NCBI GenBank assembly: GCA_001724265.1
Contig: MEDY01000038.1
Coordinates: 62,001 to 117,441, forward strand
Source of the DNA: Rhizaria sp. SCN 62-66
Taxonomy: Eukaryota
Direction of reading: 5' to 3'
DNA length: 55,441 nt
The notes under the pieces are model-generated. The model had not been told where the DNA came from, did no database searches, and worked only from the letters and a program-made list of their open reading frames with translations. Numbering within the stretch: the first letter of the stretch is position 1; the number at the start of each line of letters is the position of its first letter. The position numbers and the translations under genes are program-made. Of this stretch, positions 18,401-54,301 are shown piece after piece.

Positions 18401-21400
18401 GCCTCGATGAGCGGGCGGCAGTCGATGCGGAGGAACGCGATGTCGCACTCGGCGGGCAGCTCGCGCACGCTGGCGGCCAGCGTCGAGTACCGCTCCAGCT
18501 TGTGGTCAAAGTAGGCCGGCGGGCGCGACTTGGAGCCGCTGGCTCCGGCGCCGGCACCGCTGGAGCTGGCGTTGGCGTTGTCGGGAGTGGGCATGAGGCG
18601 CGAGAGCGAGTCGAGCTTCTTCTGGTTGAAGAGCTGGTACGTCGTGTTGTAGATCTGCCACTCGTCAAGGAAGTTGCGCGCCGAGCTCATGGCCGACTGG
18701 ACAAGGTAGTAACCCGTGCCGGCGATGTCCTTGACGACCTGATTGCGGTCCGTGTCGCTCGAGAACGTGTAGATCACGGGCTTGTCGTCCGACAGAGACA
18801 CCGAGTGGGACTCGCGGCACGTGTTGCGCATCCAGCGCACGAAGCCCTTGGCCGTCTGCGTGATGTTGCTCTGCAGCTTCGACAGTGTGTCGATGACGTG
18901 CATAACGCCGGGCACCACGGTCACGGAGCAGTCGTTGACGTCTCCGCGCAGGGACGCCGTGACCTTGATGAGTGGCACAAGCGCGCGGTTGAGGTAGGCG
19001 GGCGTGGCCTCTGCGCGCGTGGGCACGACGCCCACGAGCCCAGCGTCGACGCGCTCGCCCTCGCCCACCACGCGCGAGCCGCGGGGCGCCTCGGCCAGCG
19101 GCAGCGGCGCCGGGGAAGACGGCTCGCGGGTCAAGATACGCTGGAAGTCGAGCAGGCCGTTGGCGACCATCGAGGTGATAGCGTGGAAGAGCCGCTGCTC
19201 CCAGTGGCGGTAGTAGCCCGCCATCTGCGGGTGCCACCCGGAGTCGGACTCGCACACGTGCTGCTCGATAATCAGCAGCAGCCGCGCAATAGCGGCGTAG
19301 CGGTCAACCGCGTCCTCGGCCACGGCGGCGCGGTGGCGCTCGACCGTGTCGTAGAAGTCCTCCACGGTCACGGCCTCGGCCAGCGACTCGAAGGCGGCGA
19401 CGCGCATGAGCCGGGCCTCGCGGATGTGGGCCACGTTGCGGTCGATCAGCAGCGCGTTCTTCTTGACGTGGCTGACAATGCCGTCAAGCTTGGCGACCTC
19501 CTTAAGGCACTTGTCAACGAGCGCGTCGACGCCCAGAGAGGCCCACGTGTAAGTCACGAAGCCGGGGCGCATCGACTCCTTAAGCGTGTACACGCGCTGC
19601 GACAGCAACTCCAGCTCCACGGGGCTCAGCCGGGCCAGCACGGCGCGGTACGCCTGCAGCAGCCCCGACAGGCGCTCGGTGAGGTGATGGTACTTATCCT
19701 CCTGGAGCGCGACGTTAATGGCGATCTCGGGGATGTCGGCGCTGAGTCCCAGCTTGTCGAGGTGCTTCGTCTCGGCGATGATGTCGCACAGCGCGGGCGC
19801 GAAGTTCACCTTGATCGGTGTGTCGGGCGCGCCGAGGGGCTCGTCCTGCGGCAGCACGGCGCCCGCGGCGGCGGCGCCGGGGAGCCCACGCATGCGCATG
19901 GCCGTCGCCGTCGCCGCGGTGGTCGTAGCGGTGCCCGCGGAGGCGGCGCCGGGGCCGTTCACCAGCGACGGGCCGCCCGGGAGCAGCGAGCCGAGCCGGG
20001 CCTTGGACTGCTGGCCCGCGGCGAGCGAGGCGCCACCGACGAAGGTCGCGTTGGCGCCGCCCGTGCGCGTGGCGTTGGCCGTAAGCAGGTAGCCCGAGGC
20101 GCCGGCGGGCGTGTGCGTGCCGGTGCCGGCGCCCGAGCCCGAGCCGGAGCTGGGCCCGCCGTGCGCGGAGGGTCGCCCGATGGTCCACGCGGGCCCGGGG
20201 ACGCGGAACGACGACGAGGACGACGACGAGGACATAGCAGAGCTACTGCCCGCACCGCCGGCAGCGCCCGAGGGCAGAGCGGGGCCCATCGCGCCGTTGG
20301 CGTTGGCGCCGGAGAGGTCGTGAACGAGGACCTTCTCGCGGAGCATGGCGGGCGCGTCGCGCTCGACCGACTGCGCCCACTCGAGGAACACGCGCTTCTC
20401 GTAGGACGTCAGAAGGCGCGCGACCTCGACGTATGCCTGCTTGATCACGAGGCCCTCCTCGTCCTCGAGCAGCCCGTCCATAGTCTTGAAGCGCAGAATC
20501 GGCTTCTTGATGCGGTGGAAGAGTGAGCGCGCCCAGGCGATGGCGCCCGCGACGCGCGGCTGCGACTTGGAGATGGGCGGGCAGTCCTTGTACCGCTCAA
20601 ATTGGCGGTGCACGAGCTTGAGCTCCTCGCCGAACTGCTCCAGGATGTTGCGGTACTTGTCCTTGAGCTGGTCGCGGATCGACCGGCGCAGCACCAGGTG
20701 CGAGAAGTTCTGCAGCAGGTTGAACGCGCCCTCGGCGGAGCGGAGCTTCTTGAACGACTGATGGATGAAGAGCTTGGTGCGCTCCTCGATGAGCAGGACT
20801 TCTTCCTTGAACTCCTTGCGCTGCTGGTCCCACGAGGAGCCGTAGCGCGGGTCGAAGACATGGAACGGGAAGTGCTCCAGCGGGATCACGAGCCGCTGCA
20901 CGCGCTGCACCACGTCGTCGATTGAGTGCGGGTCGCCCGTGATGGCCTTGAGCTGCGGCGAGAGCAGCTTGTTGAACTGGTCGAGCGTCTCGGCCACCTC
21001 GAGCAGGTGCCCGCAGACCGAAGACATGTAGTCGGTCAGGTCGAACAGCTTCGAGCGGTTGAACTCCCACCGTGCGGATCCCGACTCCTCAATGCGCTGG
21101 CGCGTTTTGCTGTACTCGGTGTGCCACGTGTTGAGCACCTCGCGCGCGCTGCGGATCAGCGCCATGGCCTGCTGCGGCGGCATGCGGAACACGGTGCGCA
21201 CCGAGACTTCCTTGGCGACGCGGTCAGCGATCTCGCGCGCAATGAGCGTCAGCAGCGGGAACATGCGCGAGTCCTTGTTGTAGTGGCGCGAAACGACCCA
21301 GACCATGCGCAGCGAGTTGAGCATCGTCACGATCGTGTCCTGCAGGGTCGACAGTGAGCCCGTCGCGAGGCTCTTGAAGTGCCGCTCCAGAGTCGACAAG

Positions 21401-22642
21401 AACTTGACGTTGTCCTTGGCTTCTGTGTAGAGCTTGAGCAACTCCGCCAAGTGCTTGTTAAAGTGGACCACTGCGGTCAGCCCAGCAGCGCGCAGCACCT
21501 CGACGGCGGTCTTAACGCGCGGCACGTTGAGCTGCTCGTACACGGCCGCCAGCGCGGCGTCGCGATCGCGCCAGTACAGCACCTCGGACATCGGGCGGTC
21601 GCCCACGCGGCGCTTGCGGTGCTCGTGGTCGATCACGTTGGCCATGCTGGTGGTCCACTCGTCGAGGTACGACTCGACGCGCGACACCACGTCGGGGTCC
21701 TTCGACGCGCGCTCGATGCCCTGCGGCGAGGGGTCGAGGTGGAAGTCGGGGATAGAGACGTGCATGGAGCCGGTGACCTGCTGGATCACGTGCGAAAGGT
21801 GGCTCGCGAACTTGTTCAGGTTCACCGCAAACTCCTCACTGTGTGGAACATCAATAAGACGTGGAATTAGAATATAGATGTGAGATTATGAAAATATCAG
21901 TGTAAAAATGATATAACACTGCGAATAATATCTAGAAATAACAACATCAGTTCATAACAGTTCAATATCAACAATACATATTTTGTTTAGTGAAGAGAAG
22001 AGAAACGTACCGGAGGTGGTCGGTGGCGTCGCTGGCACGCTCGCCGTCGCCGGAGCCGGCAGCGCCACCGGCAGCACCGGCGCCAGCACTGCCGGCCGCG
22101 GCACCGCGGCGACGGCCAGAGGCGCGCGTCGCAGTCGCCGTCGCGGTCGTAGCAGCAGCCGTCTCGGCGTCCCCGTCGGCGACCGAGGCGGAGGCGTCGT
22201 CGGCCTTGCTCTCAGTGCTGCTGCTGTCGGTCGTCGCGGGAGCGGCCTTCTTGGGGGGCGCGGGCACGCCGAGGGGCTTCTTCTTGGCGCTGGCGGGTGC
22301 GGCGCCGCTGGTGTTAGGGTCTGAAGGCTCTCCGAAGGCGGTGGAGTCGGCGCCGCCAGTGCTCGAGGTGGCGTCAGCGTTGTTGTTACCGCTGTTCTCG
22401 ATCGTGGGGAGGTAAATCTCACGGATAACGCGCTCGAGCTTAATGAGCGAGTAGCCGGGGCCCGTCGACGCCGATTCGGCCGCGCCCGCAGCCGCAGTCG
22501 CAGCGGAGGCGGACGCGGACACGGAGGCGGAAGACGGCGAAGCGGCGGTGGAATGGGGCACAGAGGACGTGGGGGAATCGGGGTGGGAGAGGCCACCGCC
22601 GAGCCCGCCGTGGCCGCTGGGGCTGTGAATGGAAGGGTCCAT
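6485..22642 (-). CDS. DNAH10: Axonemal dynein heavy chain, most like inner-arm I1/f alpha (DNAH10/DHC1); exons 22642-22011, 21838-18271, 18133-6485; ~5,282 aa
   Basis: Four P-loops (GPAGTGKT, GPTGGGKS, GNSGTAKT, GVGGSGKQS), CFDEFNRI, MNPGYAGRTELPDNLK, stalk coiled coils, long N-terminal tail and C-terminus HWILQGTALVLN. Two GTACGT introns (22010-21839, 18270-18134) join three ORFs in frame. Subtype comes from recalled motifs; the start codon is less certain. Stop is TAA. Confidence 0.9.
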
Positions 22643-23346
22643 CGCTGTGTAAGCGCTAGTGACGAACGGAAAAGAGACCGGTCAGTCAAAAGAGGGACGA
22701 CAGACGACGGGAAAGGTCGGTCGGTCAGTCAGGCTCTGGAGCTCAAAAGTGTGGCGCGGGAAAGGGCCACAAACAGAGGAGCGTAAAGAAGCCTAAGAAA
22801 TACAAGCAAATGGGGAAATAGAAAAGTTCGCTTTGGCGTGAGTGCGGCGACGAACATTTAAACGGCAAAGGTCTGAGAACGAGGCATGTCGAAAGAAGCA
22901 GATCAAGAGCAGCGCGGTGTAGGACCAAGATGGGACTGCCAAAAAGCGTGGATAGGGACACGGAGATCCGTCAAATAGACATAGAGAGCAAATTAAATTA
23001 TCTCGCGTCAGCCATTCAAACAATATTTCAACTAGGATTCAAAAGGCTTCTGTTATGATACAGAACGTGCTATAAATCCTCTCCGTCGGTTACCCTGTTC
23101 AAACCCGCCAGCCGATCGAATCGAATCGAACGAACTCAAGGACAAGAACTTGATTTTTTACGAACCCGACCGAGGCTTCAAAAAATGTACAAAATCAAGT
23201 ATAACTTTGTATATGAGACGTCTATCGTGCTGGAGACGCGGTAGAATAAATATTGAGTATAAATACAACCAGATATCGTGTTAAAATTACTACGTAACCA
23301 AATTAAACTCTTCAAAACTGTGATTGATCCTTAAGAGCACTCCCAC

Positions 23347-26300
23347 TCACTTGGCGCTACCACTGCCCTCGCCCGACAGCGGCAGGAAGCGCACGACGGC
23401 GTCGACGGGCCGCTTGGTAGGGATGGCACCCGCGTTGGGCTCCATAAGCTGCTCGGGCAGCGCGTCCCAGCGCACCGAGTCGACCTCCCGCAGCGGGGCG
23501 ATGAGATCGCCCACGGTCGCCAAGGTCTCGGCCCACAGGGCGCGGGACAGACAGAGCTTCTTGACCGGGGCCAGGACCGCGCAGTAGAACTCGGACTGAG
23601 ACTGCTGAGACTGCTGCTGATGCGACTGCAAGGGTGACGGCGACGATGAATGTGACTGTGCGAGTGTGATGATGCGGGTCCTCAGGCGGCCCAGCGCCTC
23701 TGCGCGGCGTAACATCTCGCCGCTCGACATCGAGAATAGCGGCAGCGGGCCCTCAGTGGCGTCTAAAGCGGCGCTGTTTGCACTGGCGCCAACGTCAACA
23801 ATCGGGGCGACGCCATCAAACGCTGCCTTGACAGCATTATTTGCACCGCTGCTACGGGAAGCAATAGTGACAACAGCCGGCTGGAGCAAGAACGTGATGT
23901 GCTTGTCAGTAACCTCTGCGGTTGCAGCCAGCAAGGCGTTGCGTTCTTGCTTGGCAGCAGAAGCCTTGTCAAAAACAGCAGCCTTGCTATTATCGTTCGC
24001 AGAGTGAGCATTCTTGCTGTGAGTGCCTTTCGTGTTGTTGCCCTCAGTTGCAGCCTCAGTGCTCGCGGTAGTCTTACTTTCATTGATACTCTTGCTTGCA
24101 CCGTTGCTGCCGTTGCCACTGCCGCTGCTGCTCCCATTGATGGCGAGCTGCTTCGTGCGTTGCGCCTGCTGCACCCGGTACTGCTGCGTCGCGGCGAGCA
24201 CTTTGTACAGAATGCGCGCGTTGGTGATCACACGCGTGACCGTGAGCATGCCTGCCAGCGGCAGCGTGTCGCCGCCGCTCTTACCGCTACTGCTCACGCT
24301 CAAACCGCAGTGCGCGTCCTTGACGGCCGCAACCGCGCGCAGCAACTGCCAGCCCCAGTAGGGCGCGGACAGCGCGGCCACCTGCTCCGCCGCGAGCAGC
24401 ATGTCTCCGGCCGAGCGCGCGCTGAGCAACCGGCCCAGCGACGCCTCCGGCACGGCGCCGCCGCCCTGCGAGCGCGGCTGCAAGCGCCTCGCTTCGCCAT
24501 GCGCGACGAGCGCGGCGGCGTTGTTGTCGGCGATTACCGTGAGCGCGCGCTGGGCCATGACGGCGTCCACCGCGGTCGCGGGCGGCGCGGTCTGCGAGGC
24601 GAGGAAGACCGCCTCGAGCAGGTCGGCGCTGAAGCTGTGCGGCACAGCAGCGAAGTCGTCGGCGTTCTCGGCAGTGTACTTGCTATCGCCTTCACTCTTG
24701 ACAGCCTCTGACTCAACGTCAGACAAAACGTCACCCAAGATCTTGCTCTCCCTCTTATTATTGATATTGCTAGCGACAGCATTGTTGTCCGATAACCACT
24801 CGCGCAAAAACTCCGTGACAACAGCCGCACTGGCGTCATCTTGACTCGTATTACTCTTATTATGAGTCTGAGCCAACGCAAAAGCCGCATCGCCGCAAGT
24901 CACACAGTTCGCAAGTGTGGTTTTGCTGCCGGATGGAACGTTGACACCGCTAAGCGTGTGAAAGAACTCGTACACGTCCTGCTTGCGTCCCCACTTCCCA
25001 AGCCCCTGCAGCACAACCTTGACGTTCGCCTCGGTGACCGGGAGCCCGACGTCGCGCACAGTGGCCACGGCCTCGGCGCCGGCCCGGAGCGAGAGCGCGA
25101 ACCCGTAGGACAGCAGCAGACCGGACAGCGAGGGGTCGGCGATCGCGCCGGACTGGGACGACGCCATCAGGAGCGACCGCACGGCGGACAGCGCGCGGCC
25201 ACCGCCAGCAGCAGCAGAGGCAAAGGCAGTTGCAGCTGCTGTTGGCGTTGTGGTGGTGAGGATAGCGCGGACGAGGGAGCGCAGCAGGCGCAGTGTCAGC
25301 AGCATGTCGAGCGATGTTGACAGCGAATACAGGTGTGACACTAGCACAGAGCGCGGGTGGAAAGCGGGCAGGTGGTGCACTGCGGCGCGGGGGAGACTGG
25401 GAACGCTGGGCTGAGAGCTCGCAGGGGCGGCAGTGGAGTCCTTTAAGGAGCCGCGACTAAACTTGGCGTTGCGCTCAGGGCGGCCCTTAGGAGAAATTGA
25501 ACTCGTGCTTGCATTGCTGTTCAGTTGAGCCGTGTTGTTGTTTTGCTCAACAACTGTGAAGACATCAAGCAAATGCGCGAGTGTCGAGGGGCCGAAGAAG
25601 GCAGATGCGTCGCGCATCGAGGTGTTGAGTCTGCTTTGCGTAGAAGGCGAGCCGCCCCCGTGAATCCCGCTCATAGGGACGACGACGGGCACTGCAGAAG
25701 CAGCAGCCAAGCTCGACACGCTTGGAATGCTGTCAATGTTGCTGTTAGGACCAGCGTTATAGTTATTCGTAGTTGAGTCAGAGGAGCTGTTGTAACTATT
25801 TTCCGTCTCGACATCGTTGCTTGAAGTTGCGAAACCAGCGCCAGCCATCATTGCTGACTGTGCAGTTGTCGTGACAGAAATGGGGTCCAAAAAGAACAGC
25901 TTGTCCGCCGGAACATGTGTCGCCGCGTGCTGCTGCGCCAGATACTGTTGATGCTCGCTCGCGCTACTGGTACTTGCGTTGCTATGAGCGACTACACGGA
26001 GGCTGTGCGCGGTAAGCGGGTCAAAGGCTGCGAGGTACCTGGCAAGGCTGCTGGGGTATGCAGCAGCATTCGTCGCAGCATGAGTGTCACGTTCATTAAT
26101 TGCGCTCGCCTTGTTGTCAAACCTGTTGTTGGACTTGATCTTGCTCTTGTTGTTATATGTACAGGTGGAGTCAACCTGTGTCACATCATTCTGAAGCTGC
26201 TGGTCGCGGTCAGCGCTGTTGTTGCCGCCACTGTGAGTCGCCGTGAGCAGCGCCGGGTAGCGCTCCAGCGATGGCACGCGGCCCTGCAGCGCCAAGTGCC

Positions 26301-29300
26301 AGTCCACGCAGGGAAACGCGGACACGGCGGCCCGGATCACGTCGGCGTCGCTGCCGACGATGCTGTCCCAGTCAAACTGCGACTGCAGCGCCTGCAACGC
26401 CGCCGCGGTCTCAGCCTTCGTCGGGGCCGCGGTAACCGCAGCGGCGGCAGCGTCGTGGCTTTGACTGGGGCTGATAACGTGACCGTGACCGTGAGCGTCA
26501 TGGGTGTCTGAGTAGTACCGGTGGTCGTCACTCGAGATGTCGTTGTGCGTGATGATGGGCAAGGGAATGTAAGTAGCTGGAGCACTCACGCGCGCCGCAT
26601 TAGAGCTGTCAGCGTAGTCAAGCATCCCGGCAGCAACGGAGTCGTTCGCAGTGGCCGTGAGCGCCGCCGCCGCCGCCGTCGTCGCCGCTGTGGAGGAGCC
26701 AGGTTTAACTGGGGTGACCGTAAGCACCGAGCTCGGCGCCAGCGCGCGCTCCACGGCGGTCTTGACCGAAGGCAGCGCGCAGAGCAGCGCGACGGCGAGC
26801 TCGCTGCAGAGCAGCCAGTCGCCGGTGCGCGCCGCGAGGAAGAGCAGGTTATCGATCGCGGCGGCGGTGGGGTGAGACAGCACCGCGCGCGCGACCGGGA
26901 ACGAACCCGTGGGGACGCAAGCGCTGCCAGAGCTCGCGGCGCTGCTCGGGTGGAAGTAGCCGGCCGGCCCGTCTAAGGGGCTCGGACCAGCTTGCTGCGC
27001 GCGCAGACAGCCCGCTGCCGCAGCCAGGAGCTGTGCGGGCGTGAGCGACGATGACAGCGCCGCAATTGCCTGGAGCAGAGTCGACTGCAGAGAGGAGACA
27101 GCGGTCGGCGTGGCGTGCGCGATGCGGCACCACACGGAGGGGGTACTTAGACCGGCACTTAGACTCGACGCAGCGGTATTGGCGTCGACTGATGTGGTGT
27201 AGACTGCGCCGTCGCTGCCCACGGCCACGCCAGTGATTAGGATAACCGCAGGATCAGCCTTCGCAGTCGCCGCGAGGTGTGGCTGCTAGTGGGAAAGGGC
27301 AAAGAGATGCGCAGTGATCAAGTCACACGCAGCGCGGCCGTTGCCGGCGATGATGAATGCGCGCGCAAGCTGAACCACCAGCTCGGCACTGACACCAAAG
27401 ACTGAGACTGAAACGCCACCTGCACTGGGACCAGTCGAAACAAGCACCTCACCTGCAGCAACAACGCTCTGGTTAAAGACACGACACACATTCGCGACGT
27501 TATCCAGTGCAAAGTCCCTCGCCAAAGCGCCAACACTCAGAGCAGCCGCGCTCGCGCTCGGGCTCGCGCCGCCGTGTTTATGCGCGTCGGCGTTCATGGC
27601 GGTGACCGCGAGCAGCGCGGTCCTCAGCGTGTCCGCCGCAGAGCGAGGGCGAGCCTGCACCAGCGACGGCGGCAGCCAGGGGGCCTGGCGCAACTCATCC
27701 TGGAGGCGACTGCCCCAAAAGTAGGCCGCCTTGTCCGTGGCCGCGGCGTCGCCGTCGCTGAGGGTGCGGGACGTCGGGTGGAGCGGGTGAGATTGTGAGC
27801 GCAGGAAGGCCAGGGCCTGCTGGGCCCAAAAGGCGACTTGTGGTGAGACGGACGACAGGGGGTAGAAACCGCTCGCATGCGCCACGCCAGTCAGGCCCAC
27901 AGCGGCAGCAGCAGTGGCCGCGGCAGCAGCAGTGGCCGCGGCAGTTGCAGCTCCAAGAGCGGGAGCAGCAGCAGGAGTCGCGTGAGCAAGACTGATTGCG
28001 TTAATATTGTCAATGCTGTTGTTATACACTGACGCGTAGTCGGCATCGAGTTCTGCTGTTGCAGACGCGTCGGCGTCGGCGGGATCGTTGTAGTTGTCGT
28101 AGTCGCTGGCAGTGTACACGTAACTGTGCGAGTACGCGTCGTCACTCGCACCGGCGCCAGTGCGAGCGCCCATCGAGCTGCTCGGATCGGTACTGTCGCC
28201 AACGCTTCCGTTAAAGCTGTTAAACAGGTTCATTTTGATCCTGTGCACGTTCGCGGCAGAGCTCGCAGCGGCAGTCGCAGCGGCGCCGGCAGCGGCGACC
28301 GTAACAACCTCGAGCAGGTCAGTGACGCGCTGGATGCCGCCGACGTTCTCAGTTGCACCCGCACTGACGCTCGGGATGTCACCGCTACTATCGCCAACAT
28401 TCGCGTGGCTCTGACCGCGCATGCTCCGAGGGCCGCCCTTAGAGCTGTCCTTGGTAGCACTATTGCGAGCATCGACATTCGGCAGCAGACGCGTGAGCCG
28501 CCTGAGCGCGCCCTGCACGGTGTGCGGCGCCGGGGTATAGCCGAGCTGCAGCAAACCACGCAGCAGAACTACGGCAGCGGCCGCGAACGTGCCGGCGCTT
28601 GCGCGAGTCAAGTCAGGCTGGATGAGCACCGGGAACGTCGTCGTCGCGAACCGGTTGTCGACACGACTCGTGGCCTTTCGTGAAGCACGGCCGTTGCGCG
28701 CACTAGAAGAGAGGCCACCACCATCATCGCCACCGTCAGCATAATCATATTCACCGTCTTCGTCGCCCTTGTCGTAGTTGTTCCGGTGGCTGTGCGCGAC
28801 GACCGCGTCAGCGACGTCCCGCAACAGCAGAAACTCGGCGCCCGCCTCCGCGCCCACGTCGGTGAACGCGCCGGGCAGCGTCGCCCGGTCGGCGGCCACG
28901 GTCGCGGCAAGCACGAGCGCGTCCAGCAGCGGCCGCAGCTGCTGCGGGCCGAGCAGCAGCCGCACCGGTGGCGCCGCGGCGACGCCCGCGGCAGCCGCGT
29001 CCGCGAAGGCTGAGGCGGCGGCGGCGGCGGTCGCAGTATCGACCCCGCTCGCGGAGACAGGAGAGCCGGTGGAACCTGTGACACCTGTGCCAGACTTAGC
29101 GTGCGAACCGTTGCTGCTAAGGCCGTCGCTGCTGTTGTTGTTGCTGTTCGGAGAGTCAGTCGCAGCAGACTTGTTGTTGAGAGCGCTGAGCATGGCCTGC
29201 GCCTGCGCCTGCGCCGCTAGCGTCATGTAGCGGTAGCGCTCCGGGGACAAGAACGTGCTGCCTGCGACGGGCTTGAAGCGGTACCACTCGCTGGCTACCG

Positions 29301-30243
29301 CGTCGTTGTCTCGAGGCACGCCGAACATGTCACTGGAATTCTTCTGACGCTTGCCACCGTGCGTGCTCGCATGAGCGGTGCTGTTGTTGCCGTCAAACGC
29401 GCCACTGTGTTTGTTGTTATAGTGAGCGTTCGCGTTGTAGGACTGGCCGAGTCCCTTGAGCGTCGCGTTTACATCAACAAAGAAGGGCGGGTGGTTGCAG
29501 TAGTTCACTGCAAAGAGGTTCAGGTAGCGCATCATCGTCACAATGCGGCCCGCTCGCGCCGTGCGCGTAATCATCACGCTCCAGTCCGCGTAGCTGCGCT
29601 CCACCGGCGGCGTGGCGTCAAAAAGCGCGATCGCATCGTCAATGCCGGTGTTAAGTGCAGTGGCGAGCGCAGCTGTCGGACCGGCCAGGAAGAACTCGAT
29701 GACGTCGTCGTTGGCGTCGGAGCCAAAGCCGCCGGGCAGCGCGGAGGAGGCCGCCGCGGCCTGCATGTGTCTCGCAGCCGATGCCAGGTCGTGGTGCTGC
29801 AGCGGCGACAGAGAGGAGGGCAGCGTTGAGAAAGGCGCAAACGGCGAGGAGGAGGACGATGTTGATGCGGAGGGATACGTGGCGTAGCAACGTGCCGAGC
29901 TCGTCGTCGCAGATGCGGCCGCTACAGTGTGTAAGAGGGGGCGGTGCGCGTGGTGCGAGAGAGACGAGAAGCCCGGCACTGCCACTGTTGCGGTCGCAGC
30001 AGTCGTCGCAGTCGCTTTCGCAACGGTGGCGATCTTGCAAGCAGCAGCAGTGGTCGCGGCAGAGGCGGAGACAGGGACAGTGTGTACCAAAGGCTTTGCG
30101 AGCAGAGAAACGTATGTCACAGGCGCTGTCGCTAATCCCGCTGCCGTTGCGGTCGTGGGAAGTGTCGAATTGGCCGCGGTGACGAGCGCGGCGTGGCCGC
30201 ATGATGCAGTGTGAGCGACGGCTCGAGTGACGGCGCGGCGCAT
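23347..30243 (-). CDS. Very large divergent PPR-like, probably organelle-targeted protein; one 2,299-codon frame with a single internal TAG at 27286-27288
   Basis: ORFs 27286..30243 and 23347..27228 are in the same frame, joined by TAG plus 19 sense codons (QPHLAATAKADPAVILITG). PPR-like helices occur on both sides (DDAIALFDATPPVERSYADWSVMITRTARAGRI; VGLPVTEANVKVVLQGLGKWGRKQDVYEFF). N-terminus resembles a presequence. Terminal stop is TGA. Confidence 0.6.
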
Positions 30244-30739
30244 CTGATACGGAGGGAATAAAGAGCACTGAAGAAAAGATAAGAAATAATCTGCGTAAAA
30301 TCGTCAACAATGTTGACGATATCAAAATTTTGTGCAAGATAACGATGCTACCGTGGAGAACGACGCGTGGATAAGACAAGCCCGCAAACTGGTTTGCACG
30401 CTGGCGTGGGCGTGCTTTTGAGGAGTACCCTTGGGGGTCGACATAAAATGATGCACAGCGCCTCATTTTGTTCGTCAATAGCTCTGAAACTCAGTGTGCC
30501 TTAGTCACTGCTTTGTTTGGATTTTTAATTTAAACCGTTTTCTGTACAGTCACATTTACCTTTCTGTGTACCTTCTTTCTTCTCCTTCATCCCCACCGTC
30601 GTCGACCGAAGCCAGCTTTCTCATCCTCTCTCAATCCAGCGCCTCTGTATCAAACCCACTGGCTCTGAAGCTTACAAGCCACTTTTTCCACGCGCTTTTA
30701 TTGCGCAAACAAATCTGTTTGTGGTGACTATCGCTCGCT

Positions 30740-36332: not shown

Positions 36333-37777
36333 ATGGGTAAAGGTACGTTTTATTGAATTCGTTTATTCCCAAATTGTTGTGATGCGTGGCAAATCCGCCT
36401 TGGACCCCACATCCCTCTTCTTAACAGACCACCACAAGCACTTCCAGCGAGCGCCTCCTTGCTTCCCACTTGTTGTCCTCACTGTTCCAGTCTTCCCCGC
36501 TCATCTCTCATTCCCTACAACTGTTTTATTTGCTTTACATAGACTACTACGCGATTCTGGGCGTGCCCAAGCGCGCCGATGCGGACGCCATTAAGAAGGC
36601 CTACCGCAAGCTCGCCGTTAAGTACCACCCCGACAAGAACCCCGACAACGTCAAGGCGGCCGAGGAGAAGTTCAAGGAGGTCACCGAGGCCTACGAGGTG
36701 CTCTCTGACGCCAAGAAGCGCGAGATTTATGACCAGGTCGGCGAGGAGGGCCTCAAGAACGGCGCTGGCGCCGGCATGGGCGGCATGGGAGGCGGCATGG
36801 GTGGCATGCCTGGTACGTTCTCTGCTCCAACTTTCAACGCATATATCTCTCTGAAATCGATGTAGCGCTCTGTGAAACCTACGCAGCACGCTTGACTTCT
36901 TTCCGTATTCCGAAATATCAACTTGTTTTTTCCTAATTTGCTCACCCTTTGTCTTTATCTTTCTTTTCTTAACTTTTGCCCCCCATTTTTTTTGCATTCG
37001 CACGCAGGCGGCTTCTCGTCCTTCTCCTTCAGCGGCCCCGGCGGCAGCAGCGGCGGCTTTCGCCCCGGCAACGCGCGCGACATTTTCTCCCAGCTCTTTG
37101 GCGGCATGGGCGGCGGCATGGGCGGCTTCGGCGGCTTCTCGATGGGCGACGACGACGACGATGACGGCCACGGCCACGGCCACGGCGGCGGCCACGCGCA
37201 CGCCGGCCCGCGCGGCCCCGGTGGCATGCGCCGCGCGCCGCAGCCGCCGATGAAGGCGCCCGCGGTGCAGTTTGACCTGGCGCTGACGCTGGACGAGTTG
37301 TACACCGGCACGCGCAAGAAGATGAAGGTGACCCGCAAGCGCAAGGGAGAGAACGAAAGCAAGGTGCTCGAGATCGACGTCGCAGCGGGCTGGAAGGAGG
37401 GCACCAAAGTCACGTTCGCCAACGAGGGCGACGAGATCGCCAACGGCGAGGCCGGTGATGTCGTCTTTGTGATTAAGGAGAAGCCGCACGCGACCTTTAC
37501 GCGTGACAAGAACGACCTCCGCATGAAGATGAAGATCTCGCTCACCGAGGCGCTCTGCGGCTTCAAGCGCACCATCGAGGGGCTCGGCGGCAAGACTTTT
37601 GTGGTGGACACGGCGTCGACCAAGGAGGTTACCGCGCCCGGCAAGAGCAAATACTTCTGGGGCGAGGGTATGCCGCACAAGGGCGGCAAGGGCAACCTCG
37701 TCGTCGACTTCGAGATTGTCTTCCCCACGTCGCTCTCCGAGGAGCAGCGCAGCGTCATTCAGCACGCTAACATCTGA
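36333..37777 (+). CDS. DnaJ/Hsp40 class B (Sis1/DNAJB-like); exons 36333-36342, 36543-36812, 37008-37777; ~349 aa
   Basis: [14 protein letters not shown] motif, G/F- and G/M-rich linker, no zinc finger, C-terminal [10 protein letters not shown]...ISLTEALCG...GEGMP. Two GTACGT introns. Stop is TGA. Confidence 0.93.
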
Positions 37778-44665: not shown

Positions 44666-47600
44666 TTACATCGCTTGCTGCATGAGTGAATAAACCATCT
44701 TGAGCGCATCGCTCTCGCCCTTGTCGAGCCCGTCCTCGCCCACAAAGGAGTCCGCGCCGAGCCCGCCACTCACGCCCGCGAAGCTGAAGGTGCCCACGGT
44801 CATGTTAGAGTGCGAGCCCGGCCCGCATTGCTGCGTGTTGCCGAAGCCGTGAGGCCCGAGCCCGGTGACGGGGCCGACGTCGCTACTGCGCAGCGTGGCC
44901 GTCAGCGCGGCGTACTCCTGCGACACGCGCTGCGTTTCGGTCGCCGCGGCGACACAGAGGCGCGCCGTGCGCAGGTGCGCGGCCGCACCCGAGTCGGAGC
45001 CAGAGGCTGAGCCGATGCCGCGGCTCTTGCGCGCCGCCGCCAGCGCCTGCTTCATCGTCGCGACCCCGGGGGCGTTGCCCGCCGTGGCGCGCGCGTTGAG
45101 CGTGTTCATGCTGTTGGCGTGACTGCTGCTCAGAGACACGGCGCCGGACTGAGACAACACTCCGCCGCGGCCGCTTGCGCCGAGAGCGACGCCCGCAGCG
45201 CCGGCGCCCCCCGTGATGGGGAAGCGGCCCAGCGCGATGTCGCGCTCGCGCTCGCGGCGCAGCGTCTCCTGCCGCTCCCGCAGCCGCGCCACCTGGCGCG
45301 CGCGCTCGCCGCGCAGCAGCGCCACGCGGAGCTTCAGCGCGCGCGCGAGCCGGTCCCGCGCAATGAGCTTGACCGCGAGCGCCTCGCCGCAGTGGCGGCA
45401 CGCGGCGGCCGAGGCGGAGCTCACGCCGGAGCCCTTGGTCGACCCCGCACCACCTCCGCCGCCGCCGACGCCGCCAATGGCTCTCGCGCTGGCGCCGAAG
45501 ACGCGCGCGGTCGCGACGGCGCTGCTGGAGGTCGTGCTCGCGAAGGCAGACTGCGCCGAAGGGCTGTTCACGCTCTTCGGCGTCGCGCCTGCGCTCGCGC
45601 TCGCGGGAGAGCCGTTGGCGGTGTTGCTGGGGAGCGGAAACGTGACCTGTTGTACGTCGTCGTCGTACAAGCTGTCCTTGTTCGCGTCGAAGGAACAGCC
45701 GCCTCCGCTGCCGGCGTGGCAGAAGAGCGCGTAGCACGCGAGCTGGTGCAGCGCGACCTCGTCCAGCGCCTCAGCAGCGCCCACGTCGCTCTCGCCCGCG
45801 CCGCCGCCGTCGCCGGCGGCGATGCGGGCACGCACGGCGGCGGCGGTGGCGGAGGCGGCGGCGGGCGTGGCGACGAGCTCGGGGAAGCGCGAGCGCAGCG
45901 CGCTGTAGTACGACAACGGGAATGAGAACGCCACCGCTGGCTGGACGGCGATCTTGCGGGCAGAGGCGTCGTCCGCAGAGCTCTGGCTCGCGGCGAACGA
46001 GAACGGGAAAGCGTCAACAGTGTTGCCGCTGTGGCTGCTGTTCTGAGCGGTGTCGATGGGGTAATTGTGGTTGTACGCAGCGGAGTTCGTCTCGAGAGAC
46101 AGTGGGTGCGTGAACGTGCCGTAAATTCCGTTGCTATAACCGCTTACCCCGGCTCCGGCAGCGCTGCTGCTCGACACGCTCAGTGCAGCCAGCGCGGCGA
46201 CCGCGTCGCTGCTGCCGCCGTTGCAGCCTGTCGCGCCGTCGTAGCCGCTCTTGGGGAGGCTCGTCAGCACTGCGCTGCGCGACAGCAACTGTGCGAGCGC
46301 CTGCGACTGTGTCAGTGCCTGCGAGTTGGCGAGCCCCGCGCGGCTGCGGCCGCGGCTCTGCCCGCTGCTGCGCAGGTTCGACCGCAACAGTAGCTGCGAC
46401 TGCCCAAGTGGCGAGCCCTCGCCCGCGCCCGCGCCCACGCCCGCGCCCGCGCCGTCGCACACGTCAGCGCTGAACGTGATGGTGCCGGTGCTCGCGGTGC
46501 CGCTCTTGCCCTTGCCGTAGCTGCTGGTGTTCGCGCTGGCGGGCGCAGCGGTGAGTGCAGCGGGAGACACGGGCTCGACGGTGAGCGCGCGCTGCACGCG
46601 CCGCATGTCGGCCACAAGCGCGTTGAAGGCATCGCCGAGCGTGATCTGCCCATGCACCCGCGTGCCCGCAGCGCCCCCGCGCGCGCCATGCGTGCCATGC
46701 GCGCTGGGGGTGGAGGCGAAGAGCAGGCGCGCGACGGCCGTGGCCGCGGCGGGGCCGACCTCGCTGGCGAGCGCGCGCGTGAGGTACGTGCGCGAGAGCG
46801 GCAGCGCCAGCACGCGCGCCGTGAGCTGTGACAGCGACTGCGCGGCGGGCTGCGGCGGCGCCAGGCGCGTCGAGTAGCCGCCGCCGCCGCTCGCGCGCAC
46901 GGTCACGGCCAAGCTCGCGCTTCTGCTGCCGATGTTCAGAGACTCCGCAGTGGAATCGACGCTAGCGTTGTTGTCCTCGTCGTCGTAGTAGCCGTGGTTG
47001 TTGTTGTCAACGGGGTTGGTCTTGGTGGCGTAGACGGAGGACTGGGTGAGAACGCCAAGCAGCGCGAGCGTGCGGAGCGCAACAAACACGCGCGCGTGCA
47101 GCACAGACACCACAAAGTGGCCGAAGAGCACCATCAAACCGCTGTTAGGCCCGCTAGCGCCCGCGCCCGCGCTCGCGATGGAGATGAGCGCCTTGGTGAG
47201 CGCGGCGAACTTGAGGTAGGCCGCCACGAGCGCCGTGGCCGCGCTGGCCCCGACGCCCGCGCTCGTGCTGCCGGTGCTGGTGCTGGCGCTGTTGCTGCCG
47301 GCGCCACCGGCGGTGGTCGACGAGAGGAGCTTGCGGAGGTGCGGCGGCGACAGCAGCGCGTCCCAGCAGCAGCACTGCGGCGCCGGCGAGGCCGCGGTGG
47401 TCACGCCCGCGCTCAGCACGCCATGCGCAGAGGCCGCCGCCGCCGTCGCAGCGGCTGCGGCGGCCGCGGTGGAGCCAGTGCCAGCGCCGCCACTGCCCGC
47501 GCTAGCGAGAGCGTTGTTACTGCCGCCGCTGCCCGCGCCGAGACCGCTCACGCCACCGATGTTGCTGTTGTTGTTGGTGTGGCCATGGCGGAGGGCGCCG

Positions 47601-50276
47601 CCGGTGTGGGCGAGCGCGAGCACGGGCGTAGTGGGCGGGCGGTAGTACTGCTGCGCGGCCGAATAGAGCGCCTCGGCGCAGGCAACGGCGCGCGGGTCGC
47701 TGTCGTCGACGCTGTAGAAGTCGCCCTCGAGCGCGCCCGTGAGGCGCACGCCGTAGGACGGCGCGGCGGCGACCGCGGCGGCGGCCTCGGCCACAGCCAG
47801 CGGCACCGCGGTGGCAAAGGGCAGCCGCGTCAAGTGCGCCAGCGCGGGCGTCAACGTGGGCGACGCCAGCGTCACCAGACCGGCGCTGCTGCTGCTGCTG
47901 CTACTGCTGTTGCTGTTGCTGCTGTTGGCGGTGACGACGGTGGTGCCGATCGTGGCGCAGCCACGCACGGGGTAACTCAAGCCGCTGGGGGTCGTCGCCG
48001 TGTCAGAGCAAGCGCCAGCGCCAGCGGACGTTGTGTAGGCCAAGGCCGAGGAGTGCAGGTGGGGGAAGGGAAAAGCAGTGGCAGCCAGGGGGGCGACGCG
48101 CGAGGCGGCGGGGCGCCAGGCACGCGTGCCGCTCACGGTCACCTGCGACGTCGACGCAGAAGAAGAAGAAGAAGAAGAAGAAGAAGACAGCGAGGAGTCA
48201 TCGTCGGAGCTGAGACTGCCAGTGCCGTCCTTGGCGAGCGTCGCGTTGGCCTTGCCGGAGGGCGAGTGGGGCGCGAGTGCGTTGTTGAACCGCTTGCCGG
48301 TGACCTGCGCGACAATGAGCGCCGAGAGCGCCACCGCGGTGCGTGGCTGCGCGAGCAGTGCGGAGACCAGGTCGCCGGGCGCGAGCGGCGCCGAGAGGCT
48401 TGCGCTCGAGACGCCCGAGGCCGCCAGCGGGCTCAGGCCGGCGGCCGTGACGGGGGGCTGGTTCGTGCTGGGGACGCCGAACGTGGAGGCGCTCACGGGG
48501 CTGCTGGCGCTGGCGCTGGCGCTGGCGTTGGGCAGGTAGGGCTCGGCGACCGGGACGAGCGTGGCGAGACCAGAATAGGCGCTGTGGACACCGGCAGCCT
48601 TTGTCTTCGCAGTCTTCGCGTTCGTGCTGCTGCTCGTGCTGTTTGGGGAAAGGATGTTGGCGATGGCAGCAACTGTGGCGACACCTAACGGAGACGCCGA
48701 TGACAGCGACGACAAATCATCACTCGAACTCGAGCTAGAGCTAGAGCTAGAGCTGGGATTGCTTAAGAGAGAGCTCGTGACTGGGATGAAAGGGTGCGGC
48801 GACAGCAGCAGCTCCGTCATATCCCCCGCACTGGCGCTCGCACTCGCGCTGCCGTTGGTGCTGGCGCTAGCGTTGTCGTCGTTGTCGGCGGTGATCGCGT
48901 GAGTATGTGTGGTGGCGAGCTGGAGCTGCTCCAGCGTGGGCGCGGCAATCGCCCCGGCCTTGGAGTGGAGGTACTTGAGGAGGGCCGCTTTTTGCTGGCC
49001 GGTGAGGCCGTCAAGCACGGGCAGACCGCCCTCCCAGCCGCGACTAAGCCCCTTAGACTGCCGGATAAGCGCTCCATTAGATCCATCAGCAGCGTCACTC
49101 TGGTGATGCTGCTGATCCAAATCATCACTACTCATACTATCAGAGGGAGAATGGGGAGAGACGCATGTGTTGCCGCCCCATCCGCGCTGCGCGCGCGTGT
49201 CGAGGCGCGCCCGGGCGTTCGCGCGCGCGGTAGTCTTGCCGGTGTCGACACCGTTGGCCACGGCGCGCGCGGCGGCGACCGAGAGGCAGGCGTCGTCCGA
49301 GGGCGCCAGATGGCACGCCGCGGCCGCCGCCGAGGTGGGCGCGAAGCCCGCGGTCACGCCGAGCGTCGGGGCGGGCGCCGAGGGGGGCGCCACGGGCAGA
49401 CAGGCGCCGGAGCAGCCGCCGCCGCCGCCTGCCCCGCCAGTCGCGCACAGGCTGTTGTTGGTGCTATCGCCATGATTGGCTGCGGAGGCGGCGGTGGTGG
49501 CAGAGTTGGGGTTGATAGTGCGCGCGTGCTGGTAGAGGTCACCGTCAATGGGGCAGCCCTGCTGCGCGAGGAACTCGACGGCCTGCGGGTAGAAGGGCGT
49601 GAGCAGCCCGATGGCTTCGTGGTCCTCCAGCTCCAGCGCGCGCCGCAGCGCCGCGGCCGTGGTGGGCCGCACGGCGTACTCGGACAGGAAACGCAGCAAC
49701 AGCGGCATGTTGCCCGTCTCGGTCAGCGCGAGCAAGCACGAGTCGGCGGCGGCGGCGCGGGAGAGCGCGAGGGAATGCGAGTCGGCAGCACGCGGAGCGA
49801 AAGGCCGGTGCGCCATAAGGAGCGCGACAGTCGAGTCGAGCCCCATCCAGATCGCGGTCAGCACAGCGCACTAGACGCCGCGGTAGTACGGCACCACGGG
49901 GTCCGCGCCCGCCTCGAGCAGCGCCGAGACGGTCGCGTCGGCGGTGGGCAGGCGCGAGCGGACGGCCAGCGTCAGCGCCGTCTGCTTGTGCACGGGGGAG
50001 ACGAGGTTGGGGTCGGCGCCGTGCTCCAGCAGCAGGCGCACGATCGAGCGACGGCCGTTAACGGCAGCAACCATGAGCGGGGACAGGTGCGTGTAGCAGT
50101 GGAGCACGTTGAGGCGCGCGCGGTTGTCGCAGAGCATCGTCGTCGCCGTGCCCAGGTAGCCCTCCTCGCACGCGTAGAAGAGGCGCTCCGTCGCGGGCGG
50201 CATGTGCGGGGCGGAGAGTGCGGACTGGGACAGCATGTGCGAGGCCGTGACCACGGTGTTCGTGCCAGCGGTCGAT

Positions 50277-50309
<33 letters not shown>

Positions 50310-50632
50310 GCAGCGGCAGCGGCAGCGGTGGCAGAACCAGAGCCGGAGCCGGAGCCAACAGTCACAATTTTGCCAGGGATGGTGCTGTTGTTGTTGTTGT
50401 GCACGGACGATGACTGGGAGGAAGGCGCTTCAACCACCATCTCGGGCTCAACGCCGGTGTTAGTCCAGGCGGGCAGCGCGGGGAAGCGACGCGCGCGGCG
50501 GTAGTCGCAGTAGCCGTGGTGGCTGACCTGGTACTGGGTGAAGCTCGAGGTCGAGCTGGCGACGCTCGAGTACGCCTCCGTCGTGCTCTTCAGCAGCGGC
50601 GGCGCGCCGACGAGCGCGGGGGGCGACTGCAT
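44666..50632 (-). CDS. Large ankyrin-repeat protein with a long low-complexity body and C-terminal predicted coiled coil; one 1,989-codon frame with a single internal TAG at 49871-49873
   Basis: Ankyrin repeats (LFYACEEG, SPLMVAAVNGRRSIVRLLLEHGADPN, TALTLA...LLEAGADP) continue in register across the TAG (RGV*CAVLTAIWMGLDSTVALLM). ORFs 49871..50632 and 44666..49864 are in frame, two codons apart. Terminal stop is TAA, followed by TGA. Confidence 0.75.
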
Positions 50633-51173
50633 GAACTAAAGGTGTGACGGGGAAAGCGCAAAAAGGGCACAGGAAAAGCGTGGAAAGAGCGCAGGAGGCG
50701 AGTGCGGTAGCGAGAGACTGTACAGGACTGGGAGAACTTGACTGTGGGAGAGCCTGTGCGAGTGTAGAAAAGTAATACAGGACAAAATATAAAACGTGCA
50801 AAGATTATACATTGAGATTATCCATTTGATCAAACCTTATATCGAAATGACGAAGTCTTCCTGTTGATTCAAAGGGGTTTCATAACAGTCGTTTCTTCTC
50901 TGCGGTGACTGGTGAGCAACTGCCAATTTTTTTTGCTTGGCCCTTAAGCTCAGATGTCACCACAACTTTCGACTGAATGAAGTTCCGCTAAACAGAACTG
51001 TCATGCGATCTACCAAACTGCTACTACTGTTTAGAATATATTTCTTACTATGTTCACTGAGTAAACGCAAGTAAATGTTACGGCCAACTGCAGTGGAAAG
51101 GTGCGCAAAAGCTGTAGTTAAATTTTTATTTCAGCGAGGGGGGACACGGTGCAATTGCAACTCAGCGTTGCGT

Positions 51174-51174
<1 letters not shown>

Positions 51175-51214
<40 letters not shown>
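51175..51214. repeat. (CA)20 microsatellite
   Basis: Perfect CA dinucleotide run in intergenic DNA. Confidence 0.95.
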
Positions 51215-51216
<2 letters not shown>

Positions 51217-51338: not shown

Positions 51339-52386
51339 TTAGTTCTTCCCACTCTTGCTCTTCATGACCTCGGCAACATCCTGGCTAAACTTCGCGCGAA
51401 CGGCATCCTTGGCCTTCTCGCACTGCTGTTTGACCCGCTCGAACTCGCCCTTGTCCTCGGCCTCGCTGAGGATCTGCTGGCAGTTGTCCGAAGCCAGGAA
51501 GTCGACGCCGCACGCCGCCAGCGCGGCGATCTGCGCCACGGCCTGCGCGCCGTGGCACGCCTCGTCGGCCGCGCTGGCCGCCGCGGAGAGCTCTGTCCCG
51601 GCGGCCACAAGCTTGAGCACGGTGTTGGCGTTGCACTGGTAGAGCATCGCCATCGCCAGCGGCGTGCGGCTGAAGCAGTCCTCGACCAAGTTGGGGTTCG
51701 CCTTGTGCTTGAGCAGCAGGTCCGCGATCGGGCAATCGCCCACGGGCGTCGGTGCGGAGTCGTCGCAGACCATGTGCTCGCTGTACGCCACGTGCAGCGG
51801 CGTCGCGCCGTCGACGTCTTGTGCGCTCACGTCCGCGCCGGCCTGGAGCAGCGCCTGGGCCGCGGAGAGCGAGTTGGCGTCCACGGCGTAGCGCAGCGGC
51901 GTGAACTGGCTGTAGCACGCCTTGCATTCCAGGTCGGCCCCGGCGGCGGCCAGGAGCGCGACCGCCGCGGCGTCGCCGGCCTTTGCGGCGTAGTGGAGCG
52001 CGGTGTGCTCGTTGAAGTCGCCCGCGGCAGTGTTGAGCTGGTCGGGGGTGAGGCCAGCCAGCGCGGCGGCGCCAGAGGACTTGACGCGCTCGTACAGGGC
52101 TACCGTGAAGTGATGAAATTGTCAGCAAAGGCATGAAAAAGTGAGAAAATGAAGATTTTGCGACGAGAGACATGAATGAGAGCGAGACAGATTCGACAAC
52201 AATGAGTTTCACTGATGCGAGACAATGTGATTTTAATCTAAAGTTAAGTCATCGTATGAACATAAGACTCTGGTGGAAACATAATCAGTCCTAAGTGAAA
52301 TTGGCCTGGTCTAGAGTGCATTCTATGTTAGAAAAGTGCTTTGACGTACCGAGACTTTGAGAACTTTCGTCTTCGTTGTCAGACAT
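51339..52386 (-). CDS. Small ankyrin-repeat protein, tandem copy A; exons 52386-52350, 52099-51339; ~265 aa
   Basis: MSDNEDESSQSL|ALYERVKS...HTALHYAAKAGD...TPLRYAVDAN...GATPLHVA...RTPLAMA. GTACGT..TAG intron. Stop is TAA. Confidence 0.85.
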
Positions 52387-53224: not shown

Positions 53225-54301
53225 TTACTTATTCTTATCAGCCTTCATAACCTCCGCCTTCATAACCTGCATGCGAAACTGTTCGCACACGTCCTGCTTC
53301 ATCTCCAAGCACCGCTTCTTCACCCGCTCAAACTCTCTCTTGTCATTTGCCTTGTTAAGAATCTCCTGGCAGTTGTTCGACGCCAGAAAGTCCGCCCCGC
53401 ACGCCGCCAGCGCGGCCACTTGCTCGACACTGACTGCGCTGTCGCAGGCCGGGGTCGTCTCCGAGTCGGCGTCTTCCTTGGGCAGCTGCGCGAGCGCGGC
53501 CCCCGCGGCGGCGAGCCGCAGCACCGTGGCCGCACCGGCATTGTGCTGCAGTGCGTAGTTGAGCGGGGTGCGGAAGAAGCACGACTCCGCGAGGTTGGGG
53601 TCCGCCTTGTGCTGCAGCAGCAGGTCGGCGATCGCACACGTTCCCGCCTCGTCACTATGTGTGCAGCCGCAGTGGCCTGCGGCGCGGGTGGTGCCTTCGC
53701 TGCTACTGGGGGAGCCATCGGCAGTGCTCTCCTTGGCCTTGACCATGTGTTTTCGATAGGCAATGTGCAGCGGCGTCTCGCTGTCGACGTCTTGCGCGTT
53801 CACGTCCGCGCCGGCCTGGAGCAGCGCCTGGGCCGCGGGGAGCGAATTGGCGTCCACGGCAAAGCGCAGAGGAGTGTATTCGCCATAGCACGCTTTCATT
53901 TCGATGTCAGCCTTAGCAGCGATCAGGAGCTTGACAGAAGCAGCATCGCCGGCCTTGGCAGCGTAGTGAAGTGCGGTATAGGAGTCAGAGTCACCAGCAG
54001 CTGTGTTGAGCTGATCATATGTTAAGCCGGCCAGTGCGGCGGCGCCGGTGGACTTGACGCGCTCGTACAGAGCTGATGAGAGCAAATGAACATTGAACAA
54101 TACAAGAGCGATTATATCAGCAAAAATTGCATCACATAATCATCGAAATTTGGCTAAGTTATGACACTTCCATTATTGTGATACATATTTGGGTTTATAA
54201 TGCAATGACGTTTGTTCAGTGTGATCTCTAAGTTGTTAAATGCCAAGAAACATACCAAGGCTTTGTGAATTATCTGGCGTCTCGTTGTAAGAATCGGACA
54301 T
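53225..54301 (-). CDS. Small ankyrin-repeat protein, tandem copy B; exons 54301-54256, 54072-53225; ~297 aa
   Basis: MSDSYNETPDNSQSL|ALYERVKS...YTALHYAAKAGD...TPLRFAVDAN...ETPLHIA...RTPLNYA. GTATGT..CAG intron at the same position and phase as copy A. Stop is TAA. Confidence 0.87.

Follow-up and report, generated by a model that had tools for sequence, protein, structure and literature searches.

An in-frame TAG within the ankyrin-repeat domain of a long gene from an uncultured, probably rhizarian, eukaryote

The stretch analysed here comprises 55,441 nucleotides of contig MEDY01000038.1 (assembly GCA_001724265.1, positions 62,001 to 117,441) and is referred to throughout as the window. Its minus strand carries a long gene with an ankyrin-repeat domain whose reading frame contains one TAG, seen on the plus strand as CTA at window positions 49871-49873. 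The minus-strand translation across this codon is ...LLEAGADPVVPYYRGV*CAVLTAIWMGLDSTVALLMAH..., and direct reading of it places GADPVVPYYRGV*CAVLTAIWMG in residue-for-residue register with the preceding repeat GADPNLVSPVHKQTALTLAVRSR, the * falling opposite Q. The main features of the gene are as follows:

49874..50632, minus strand: upstream gene part, ATG plus 252 codons, with the N-terminal HGY.DYR motif and the first ~3.3 ankyrin repeats
49871..49873, minus strand: in-frame TAG, residue 255 of the read-through translation (P0001), in the context GGC GTC TAG TGC GCT
49844..49846, minus strand: first ATG beyond the TAG (9 codons further on), start of the database's 1726-residue gene call P0004
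44666..49870, minus strand: downstream gene part, 1734 sense codons in the same frame, closed by TAA at 44666-44668
49556..50200, minus strand: predicted ankyrin-repeat stack, P0001 residues about 146-360, with the TAG in the loop just before the fourth helix pair
45221..45445, minus strand: conserved C-terminal block (C..CG...coiled-coil), P0001 residues 1731-1805, with 28 of 76 positions identical to the orthologue P0260 (E 4e-8)

The upstream open reading frame (ORF) extends over 49871..50635, with its ATG at 50632-50630 and 253 sense codons, and the downstream ORF proceeds for its 1734 codons with zero further stops or frame breaks. The G+C fraction at third codon positions (GC3) is 0.82-1.0 in-frame in 40-codon segments on both sides of the TAG and 0.86 across the downstream ORF, indicating that the codon bias is continuous over the TAG. 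The original prediction had described a downstream frame of 1,732 codons that continues directly from the stop; the direct continuation stands, and the count is corrected to 1734. Should the TAG terminate translation, the ATG at 49844..49846 (Met264) is a possible site of reinitiation. Directly before the ATG of the gene lies a pyrimidine-rich tract ending in AG (50636-50720, minus strand), which could be the 3' splice site of an intron in the 5' untranslated region.

Orthologues and the ankyrin domain

To place the gene, a HMMER scan of 1.84 billion representative proteins was run with the first 1199 residues as query, numbered from the ATG and with the TAG entered as X. It recovered the window's own pieces, P0245 (residues 133-253) and P0004 (query residues 263-1199), and, among thousands of generic ankyrin matches, three proteins that match the N-terminal ankyrin domain across the TAG (P0260, P0282 and P0276). 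A cluster look-up added P0392 and P0393, giving five orthologous proteins from three clusters, which were aligned with the window protein (alignment A1). When the ankyrin region was used for a word-index protein search, generic ankyrin proteins dominated the matches, the window's own P0004 being the only relevant one, and a scan of metagenome contigs with ankyrin patterns gave at least 78 loci at 28-63% identity, with neither an orthologue nor the contig of the window itself among the matches listed.

All five orthologues conserve the N-terminal motif (K/H)HGY.DYR in A1 and align over the ankyrin block, whose repeats are conserved as well, and the alignment runs without a gap through the TAG: PYYRGV-X-CAVLTA in the window protein is matched by PYFTGI-P-SPIVLA, PYFTGI-A-SPLWIS (in two proteins) and SRFSCV-E-SPILLA (in two). 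The TAG thus stands in place of exactly one residue; its column is variable, with P, A, A, E and E in the five orthologues, and as it varies in this way no amino acid can be inferred for the TAG itself. Two of the orthologues, P0260 (1725 residues) and P0282 (1351 residues), are uninterrupted single ORFs that span both parts of the gene, with C-terminal blocks colinear with the downstream ORF. A BLASTP comparison of the read-through translation with P0260 gave a high-scoring segment pair over residues 139-347 that spans the TAG (E 1e-38, 37% identity), and further colinear pairs at residues 1544-1588 (E 0.007) and 1731-1805 (E 4e-8). As the N-terminal and C-terminal segments are colinear with an uninterrupted protein, the ancestral gene covered both ORFs. 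Taken together, these comparisons show that the two ORFs are one gene, consisting of an N-terminal ankyrin stack followed by a long low-complexity tail, and that the TAG is a genuine codon inside it. Database gene callers divide the gene into two entries, P0245 and P0004; such prokaryote-style calls break it whatever the standing of the TAG, even if this is merely a young nonsense allele.

The repeat domain itself is readily detected by Pfam (Ank_2, E 5.9e-11, 43.2 bits against a cut-off of 27.3, residues 152-247; Ank, E 5.7e-08). An AlphaFold2 model was built on A1, in which the TAG is residue X230. The mean predicted local distance difference test score (pLDDT) of the whole model is 61.9, a low value caused by disordered flanks, and a helical repeat domain extends over model residues 121-335, with pLDDT in ten-residue blocks of 66-94 over 121-330 and of 83-94 in most blocks. 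X230 is predicted to lie in a loop between helix pairs, with helices at 232-239 and 242-249 coming next. The top PDB chains found by Foldseek were re-aligned with VIA-align and proved to be DARPins, gankyrin and ankyrin B/G (Z 17-18.7), with matches that span model residues 118 to 296-340 and therefore run across the TAG. The best of them was 5lec (Z 18.7, root mean square deviation 2.4, 158 residues aligned, model residues 118..296), while 6moj_A aligned over 199 residues (Z 17.7, model residues 121..340). In the model about 215 residues form the confident domain, ~109 of them before the TAG and ~105 after it, so that the predicted fold requires both sides of the codon. The gapless alignment of the orthologues and the predicted stack running through the TAG indicate that the in-register pattern goes beyond chance. 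The original prediction of a TAG in register within an ankyrin repeat, at which termination would cut the repeat array, is thus borne out by the translation, by the orthologues and by the modelled domain with its structural matches.

The source organism and its stop codons

Metagenome runs on bioreactors and wastewater, dated 2015 to 2025, contain DNA of the window, so that its source is an uncultured eukaryote. In composition, coding DNA very rich in GC3 (0.86-0.93 in the big ORFs) alternates across the window with spacers and introns of ~35-45% GC. Spliceosomal introns were verified in three genes, and are AT-rich with a GTACGT 5' site and an AG end; a trypanosomatid-like intronless genome is ruled out by them. 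Other features of the window are:

6485-21885, minus strand: axonemal dynein heavy chain of the DNAH10 / inner-arm I1-alpha type, ~5,090 codons, with a single intron within the stretch
18134-18270, minus strand: dynein intron, 137 nucleotides, AT-rich
27280..27288, minus strand: second in-frame TAG with its following codons, the TAG itself at 27288..27286, in gene P0244 (ORFs 23347..27285 and 27286..30303)
after 33462: PP2C intron, AT-rich, GTACGT
from about 36813 to 37007: DnaJ intron, AT-rich, GTACGT
51339-52121 and 53225-54139, minus strand: two tandem paralogous small ankyrin genes, P0002 and P0003, both ending in TAA

The affinities of the organism were assessed from the dynein gene. In the database it comes closest to metagenome proteins (60-62% identity), and the best-scoring named organism is Bigelowiella natans (56%, 1174 bits). 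A FastTree phylogeny (LG+gamma, 25 sequences, 4,317 columns), for which 24 rows were picked by hand from the 120 matches listed, unites the window, seven metagenome sequences and Bigelowiella natans to the exclusion of 16 other eukaryotes with Shimodaira-Hasegawa-like support of 0.999. The organism is thus probably a rhizarian, an assignment that is tentative in that it draws on a single gene and thin sampling, and within Rhizaria probably a cercozoan. The ORF at 21952..22728 may be a further 5' exon of the dynein. A scan of viral contigs with dynein patterns gave no match.

Two public metagenome-assembled genomes labelled as bacteria, one of them Verrucomicrobiaceae, hold many long eukaryotic dynein heavy-chain genes (loci L079, L106 and L108 in G001; L100, L107 and L109 in G002) with identities to the dynein of the window of 66-71%, and of up to 69% for the long genes. 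These genomes are, at least in part, mis-binned eukaryotes. An orthologue of the ankyrin gene was not found in either with the query used (best match 23 bits), nor was a run of in-frame TAGs seen in their dyneins; neither genome is informative on the code of the window organism. Closer to the TAG-bearing gene, the ORFs of P0002 and P0003 are without an early Met and begin at ...ALYERVKS.GAAALAGL, their start codons probably lying in an upstream exon. Between the TAG-bearing gene and the small ankyrin gene, the spacer includes a (TG)n microsatellite of ~40 nucleotides at about 51175-51216.

Gene ends could be judged at 13 places in the window; stop-codon use is strongly skewed to TAA and none of them is a TAG, although coding GC3 is ~0.9. 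By position and stop codon they are:

Gene ends, window-wide: 1035, 1457, 3723, 6143, 6485, 23347, 31226, 33856, 37775, 40890, 44666, 51339, 53225
TAA (nine): gene A, Dim1, ECH, dynein, PP2C, kinase, the TAG-bearing ankyrin gene and the two small ankyrin genes
TGA, clear (two): TRAPP and DnaJ
TGA, doubtful (two): Med10 and P0244, each in a GTGAGT-like string, where the TGA may be a 5' splice site or intronic

The second in-frame TAG lies 22.6 kb from the first, in P0244, a gene of ~2,300 codons that has no Pfam match and exactly one in-frame stop, preceded by 1005 codons and followed by 1312. With CAG CCA directly after it, this TAG forms an exact UAG-CAR-YYA motif, which is the classic context that stimulates readthrough, as described in the part of the literature drawn on here (PMC3542737). 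CAR-YYA follows at only 7 of 9,392 codon pairs in four big coding stretches. The RNA after the P0244 TAG has no unusual structure (z -1.53), and a search for orthologues of P0244 found none, the sole match being its own downstream piece P0395. Neither of the two interrupted genes carries a further lesion. The gene for eRF1 lies outside the window. The ankyrin-gene TAG had been put forward as the cleaner of the two sites for sense decoding, which is fair, since the P0244 site carries the leaky UAG-CAG-CCA.

Readings of the in-frame TAG

The lack of TAG at all 13 gene ends, the leaky context of the P0244 TAG and the absence of any other lesion from either gene favor the reading that ribosomes pass the ankyrin-gene TAG often enough for the full-length protein to be made, with the codon serving as a weak stop that has fallen into disuse, or as a sense codon still at an early, ambiguous phase. 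We put the probability of this reading at roughly 0.45. Across the organism TAG would then be a weak stop that is now little used, whether as an ambiguous sense codon at an early stage or as a stop that leaks in general, and continuation might be brought about by a near-cognate tRNA, a suppressor tRNA or an altered eRF1. We estimate that a dead gene of this size, with ~351 one-step nonsense paths and with indels over 6 kb, would gain a second lesion once divergence had reached a few tenths of a percent. The marks of a pseudogene, namely further lesions and decay of the codon bias downstream, are absent, and this is compatible also with a very young nonsense allele. A further point in favor of passage is that the single difference between assemblies inside the ankyrin gene leaves the protein unchanged. 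Contigs of polyA RNA from run X7 lie with 0 differences on the downstream ORF (44872-45424, 46553-46889, 47003-47500 and 49133-49301); as support for translation they are weak, since DNA carry-over is possible. One extension of this reading is that the organism is early in losing TAG as a stop, with new TAGs appearing in long, weakly constrained genes. A suppressor tRNA or a weakened eRF1 would in that event let TAG be read, and genes would no longer end in it; we regard this scenario as rather unlikely.

Several observations count against passage of the TAG by ribosomes. The tally of in-frame TAGs is low (2 in roughly 12,700 recognisable codons, an approximate figure, with 0 in the about 5,090 codons of the dynein), the sample of gene ends is small (n=13), and no tRNA genes were found in the 55 kb window. 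The context of the ankyrin-gene TAG, GUC UAG UGC GCU, fits no recognised leaky motif and is not followed by CAR YYA, the same conclusion as had been reached originally for TAG TGC GCT. The 103 nucleotides from this TAG onward fold no better than shuffled sequences (z -0.50; 62 of 200 shuffles at least as well). None of the RNA contigs listed spans the TAG, and the base itself is confirmed by only one further run, of the same study (X2/X3, see below). Of all one-step nonsense paths in the ankyrin gene, 240 of 351 (~68%) lead to TAG; two TAGs are therefore expected about half the time from random nonsense mutation, and the fact that both in-frame stops are TAG carries little weight. Moreover, the genes that hold them are of low complexity and evolve fast, and it is in such genes that a nonsense allele would do least harm. 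Sense decoding, which had been the preferred interpretation at the outset, is only partly supported by this analysis: the gene ends, the P0244 TAG and the intact frames speak for it, and the P/A/E column, the lack of a tRNA in the window and the TAG-free dynein speak against it.

The strongest competing explanation is a very recent nonsense mutation, present as a segregating, heterozygous or newly fixed loss-of-function allele, which we consider a serious though still tentative possibility. On this account the TAG ends a fragment of 253 residues with about three ankyrin repeats, and the tail is lost or made at a low level through reinitiation at Met264. TAG is the commonest product of one-step nonsense changes in the gene, and the variable P/A/E column makes GAG or CAG, each one step from TAG, a plausible ancestral codon. 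The same account is helped by the plain context of the ankyrin-gene TAG and the ordinary RNA structure downstream, by the TAG-free dynein and by the splitting of the gene in the databases. The single between-assembly difference inside the gene (46049, synonymous, ACC>ACA) gives the population a near-clonal look, in which drift could fix a bad allele. However, two of 13 genes in 55 kb each contain exactly one stop and no other lesion, which, given how soon a second lesion is expected, would require both nonsense events to be very young. The P0244 context would arise by chance at ~0.1% of positions, TAG is absent from the gene ends of the window, and no part of the protein is better conserved than the ankyrin domain that the TAG cuts (37% identity to P0260, residues 139-347). 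The original prediction had already named a recent nonsense mutation as its alternative; the expected predominance of TAG agrees with it, whereas the lack of a second lesion and of TAG gene ends (0/13) does not. If the TAG is indeed a young nonsense allele, the finding is an ordinary one.

That TAG has been cleanly reassigned to a single amino acid throughout the genome, as in exLh and Iotanema, with TAA and TGA as the only stops, appears improbable. Such a change would account for the 0 of 13 TAG gene ends and for the fact that both in-frame stops are TAG, and the dynein tree, by uniting the window with Bigelowiella natans, places the organism probably in the supergroup that holds exLh (PMC5304391, in the part concerned with these codes). 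Against it, the same part of that study gives 384 in-frame UAG codons in 71 genes of exLh (PMC5304391), compared with 2 in roughly 12,700 codons here and 0 in the dynein. The TAG column has no consistent residue, and a tRNA(CUA) was not found in the window. A plain sense codon would furthermore have no need of the CAR-YYA context at the P0244 site, and this superfluous context is more in keeping with a weak stop than with clean reassignment.

It is very improbable that a tiny intron removes or bypasses the TAG at the RNA level, or that the two ORFs are separate genes. The only GT...AG strings that end at the AG of the TAG are of 24 and 27 nucleotides, and excision of either would leave a gap of 8-9 residues that is absent from the gapless alignment of the five orthologues. 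Verified introns of the window (n=3) are AT-rich, longer than 130 nucleotides and start with GTACGT, whereas the GC fraction near the TAG is 0.67 (49801-49900) to 0.78 (49901-50000). A candidate intron at the TAG thus departs from the pattern of an AT-rich sequence of >100 nucleotides with a GTACGT 5' site and a YAG 3' site. The GC-rich flanks had been noted from the outset as unlike introns, and that judgement is upheld by the GC content, the verified introns and the alignment alike. Two small ankyrin genes do sit just upstream, but the orthologues are single ORFs over both parts and the N-terminal part is only weakly similar to the neighbouring small ankyrin gene.

An error of sequencing or assembly, with a sense codon as the true codon, can be assigned a similarly slight probability. 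The depth of the X2/X3 contig over the TAG is low (3.05), but this contig, assembled separately from a run (X2) on a different sample of the study from which the window probably came, covers 49625..50270 with 0 other letters; none of the four runs compared has a differing letter listed at 49871-49873, and the window contains one more TAG of this kind. The base call in the DNA is real. The base at the TAG was checked in assembled contigs, where the letters agree (49625..50270 in X2/X3), and the sequencing error that had been considered as an alternative is now unlikely. Runs X2 and X3 are on file as different samples and studies, yet agree fully in contigs, depths and differences; one data set was probably deposited twice, and, as their contigs are identical, the two were counted as one run. 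Incorporation of pyrrolysine or selenocysteine at the TAG is rejected, as neither is known to be encoded by TAG in eukaryotes.

Set against known systems, the ankyrin gene resembles a premature-stop allele or young unitary pseudogene in having one nonsense codon, of the commonest mutational type, in an otherwise intact and fast-evolving gene. It differs from this class in that two such genes occur among 13, with no further lesion, one leaky context and no TAG terminators. The context-dependent codes of Condylostoma, Blastocrithidia and Amoebophrya, in which many in-frame stops occur per gene and other codons are concerned, likewise use a stop codon as sense inside genes and rely on other signals for termination, but nothing of their density of in-frame stops is seen in the window. 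Type I programmed readthrough at UAG-CAR-YYA, as in the replicase of tobacco mosaic virus, also involves a single internal UAG that has to be passed for the long product, and the P0244 TAG has the exact motif as it is given in the relevant part of PMC3542737. The ankyrin-gene TAG, by contrast, is followed by UGC GCU, belongs to a cellular gene and interrupts a folded domain instead of lying between two modules.

The closest parallels are nuclear codes in which UAG is read as Leu, in the rhizarian exLh (Sainouroidea), or as Gln, in Iotanema spirale (PMC5304391, in the account of the two codes). As in these, the in-frame stops of the window are TAG only, genes end in TAA or TGA, TAG is not used as a terminator, and the host is probably rhizarian; the dominance of TAA at the gene ends recalls Guttulinopsis, for which the same account reports UAA at all but one transcript end (PMC5304391). 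In exLh, however, UAG is frequent and falls at conserved leucines (PMC5304391, same account), whereas here it is rare, stands in a variable P/A/E column in the one case that can be aligned and is absent from the dynein. TAG-only changes are rare in nuclear codes, and that account presents its two cases as the first (PMC5304391). Should the present organism indeed be early in losing TAG as a stop, it would represent an 'ambiguous intermediate' found in nature on the way to reassigning a stop codon, and Rhizaria would have a second TAG-only change of independent origin. Such intermediates have so far mostly been inferred, and an organism that no longer ends its genes with TAG yet tolerates a few in frame would make this stage directly testable.

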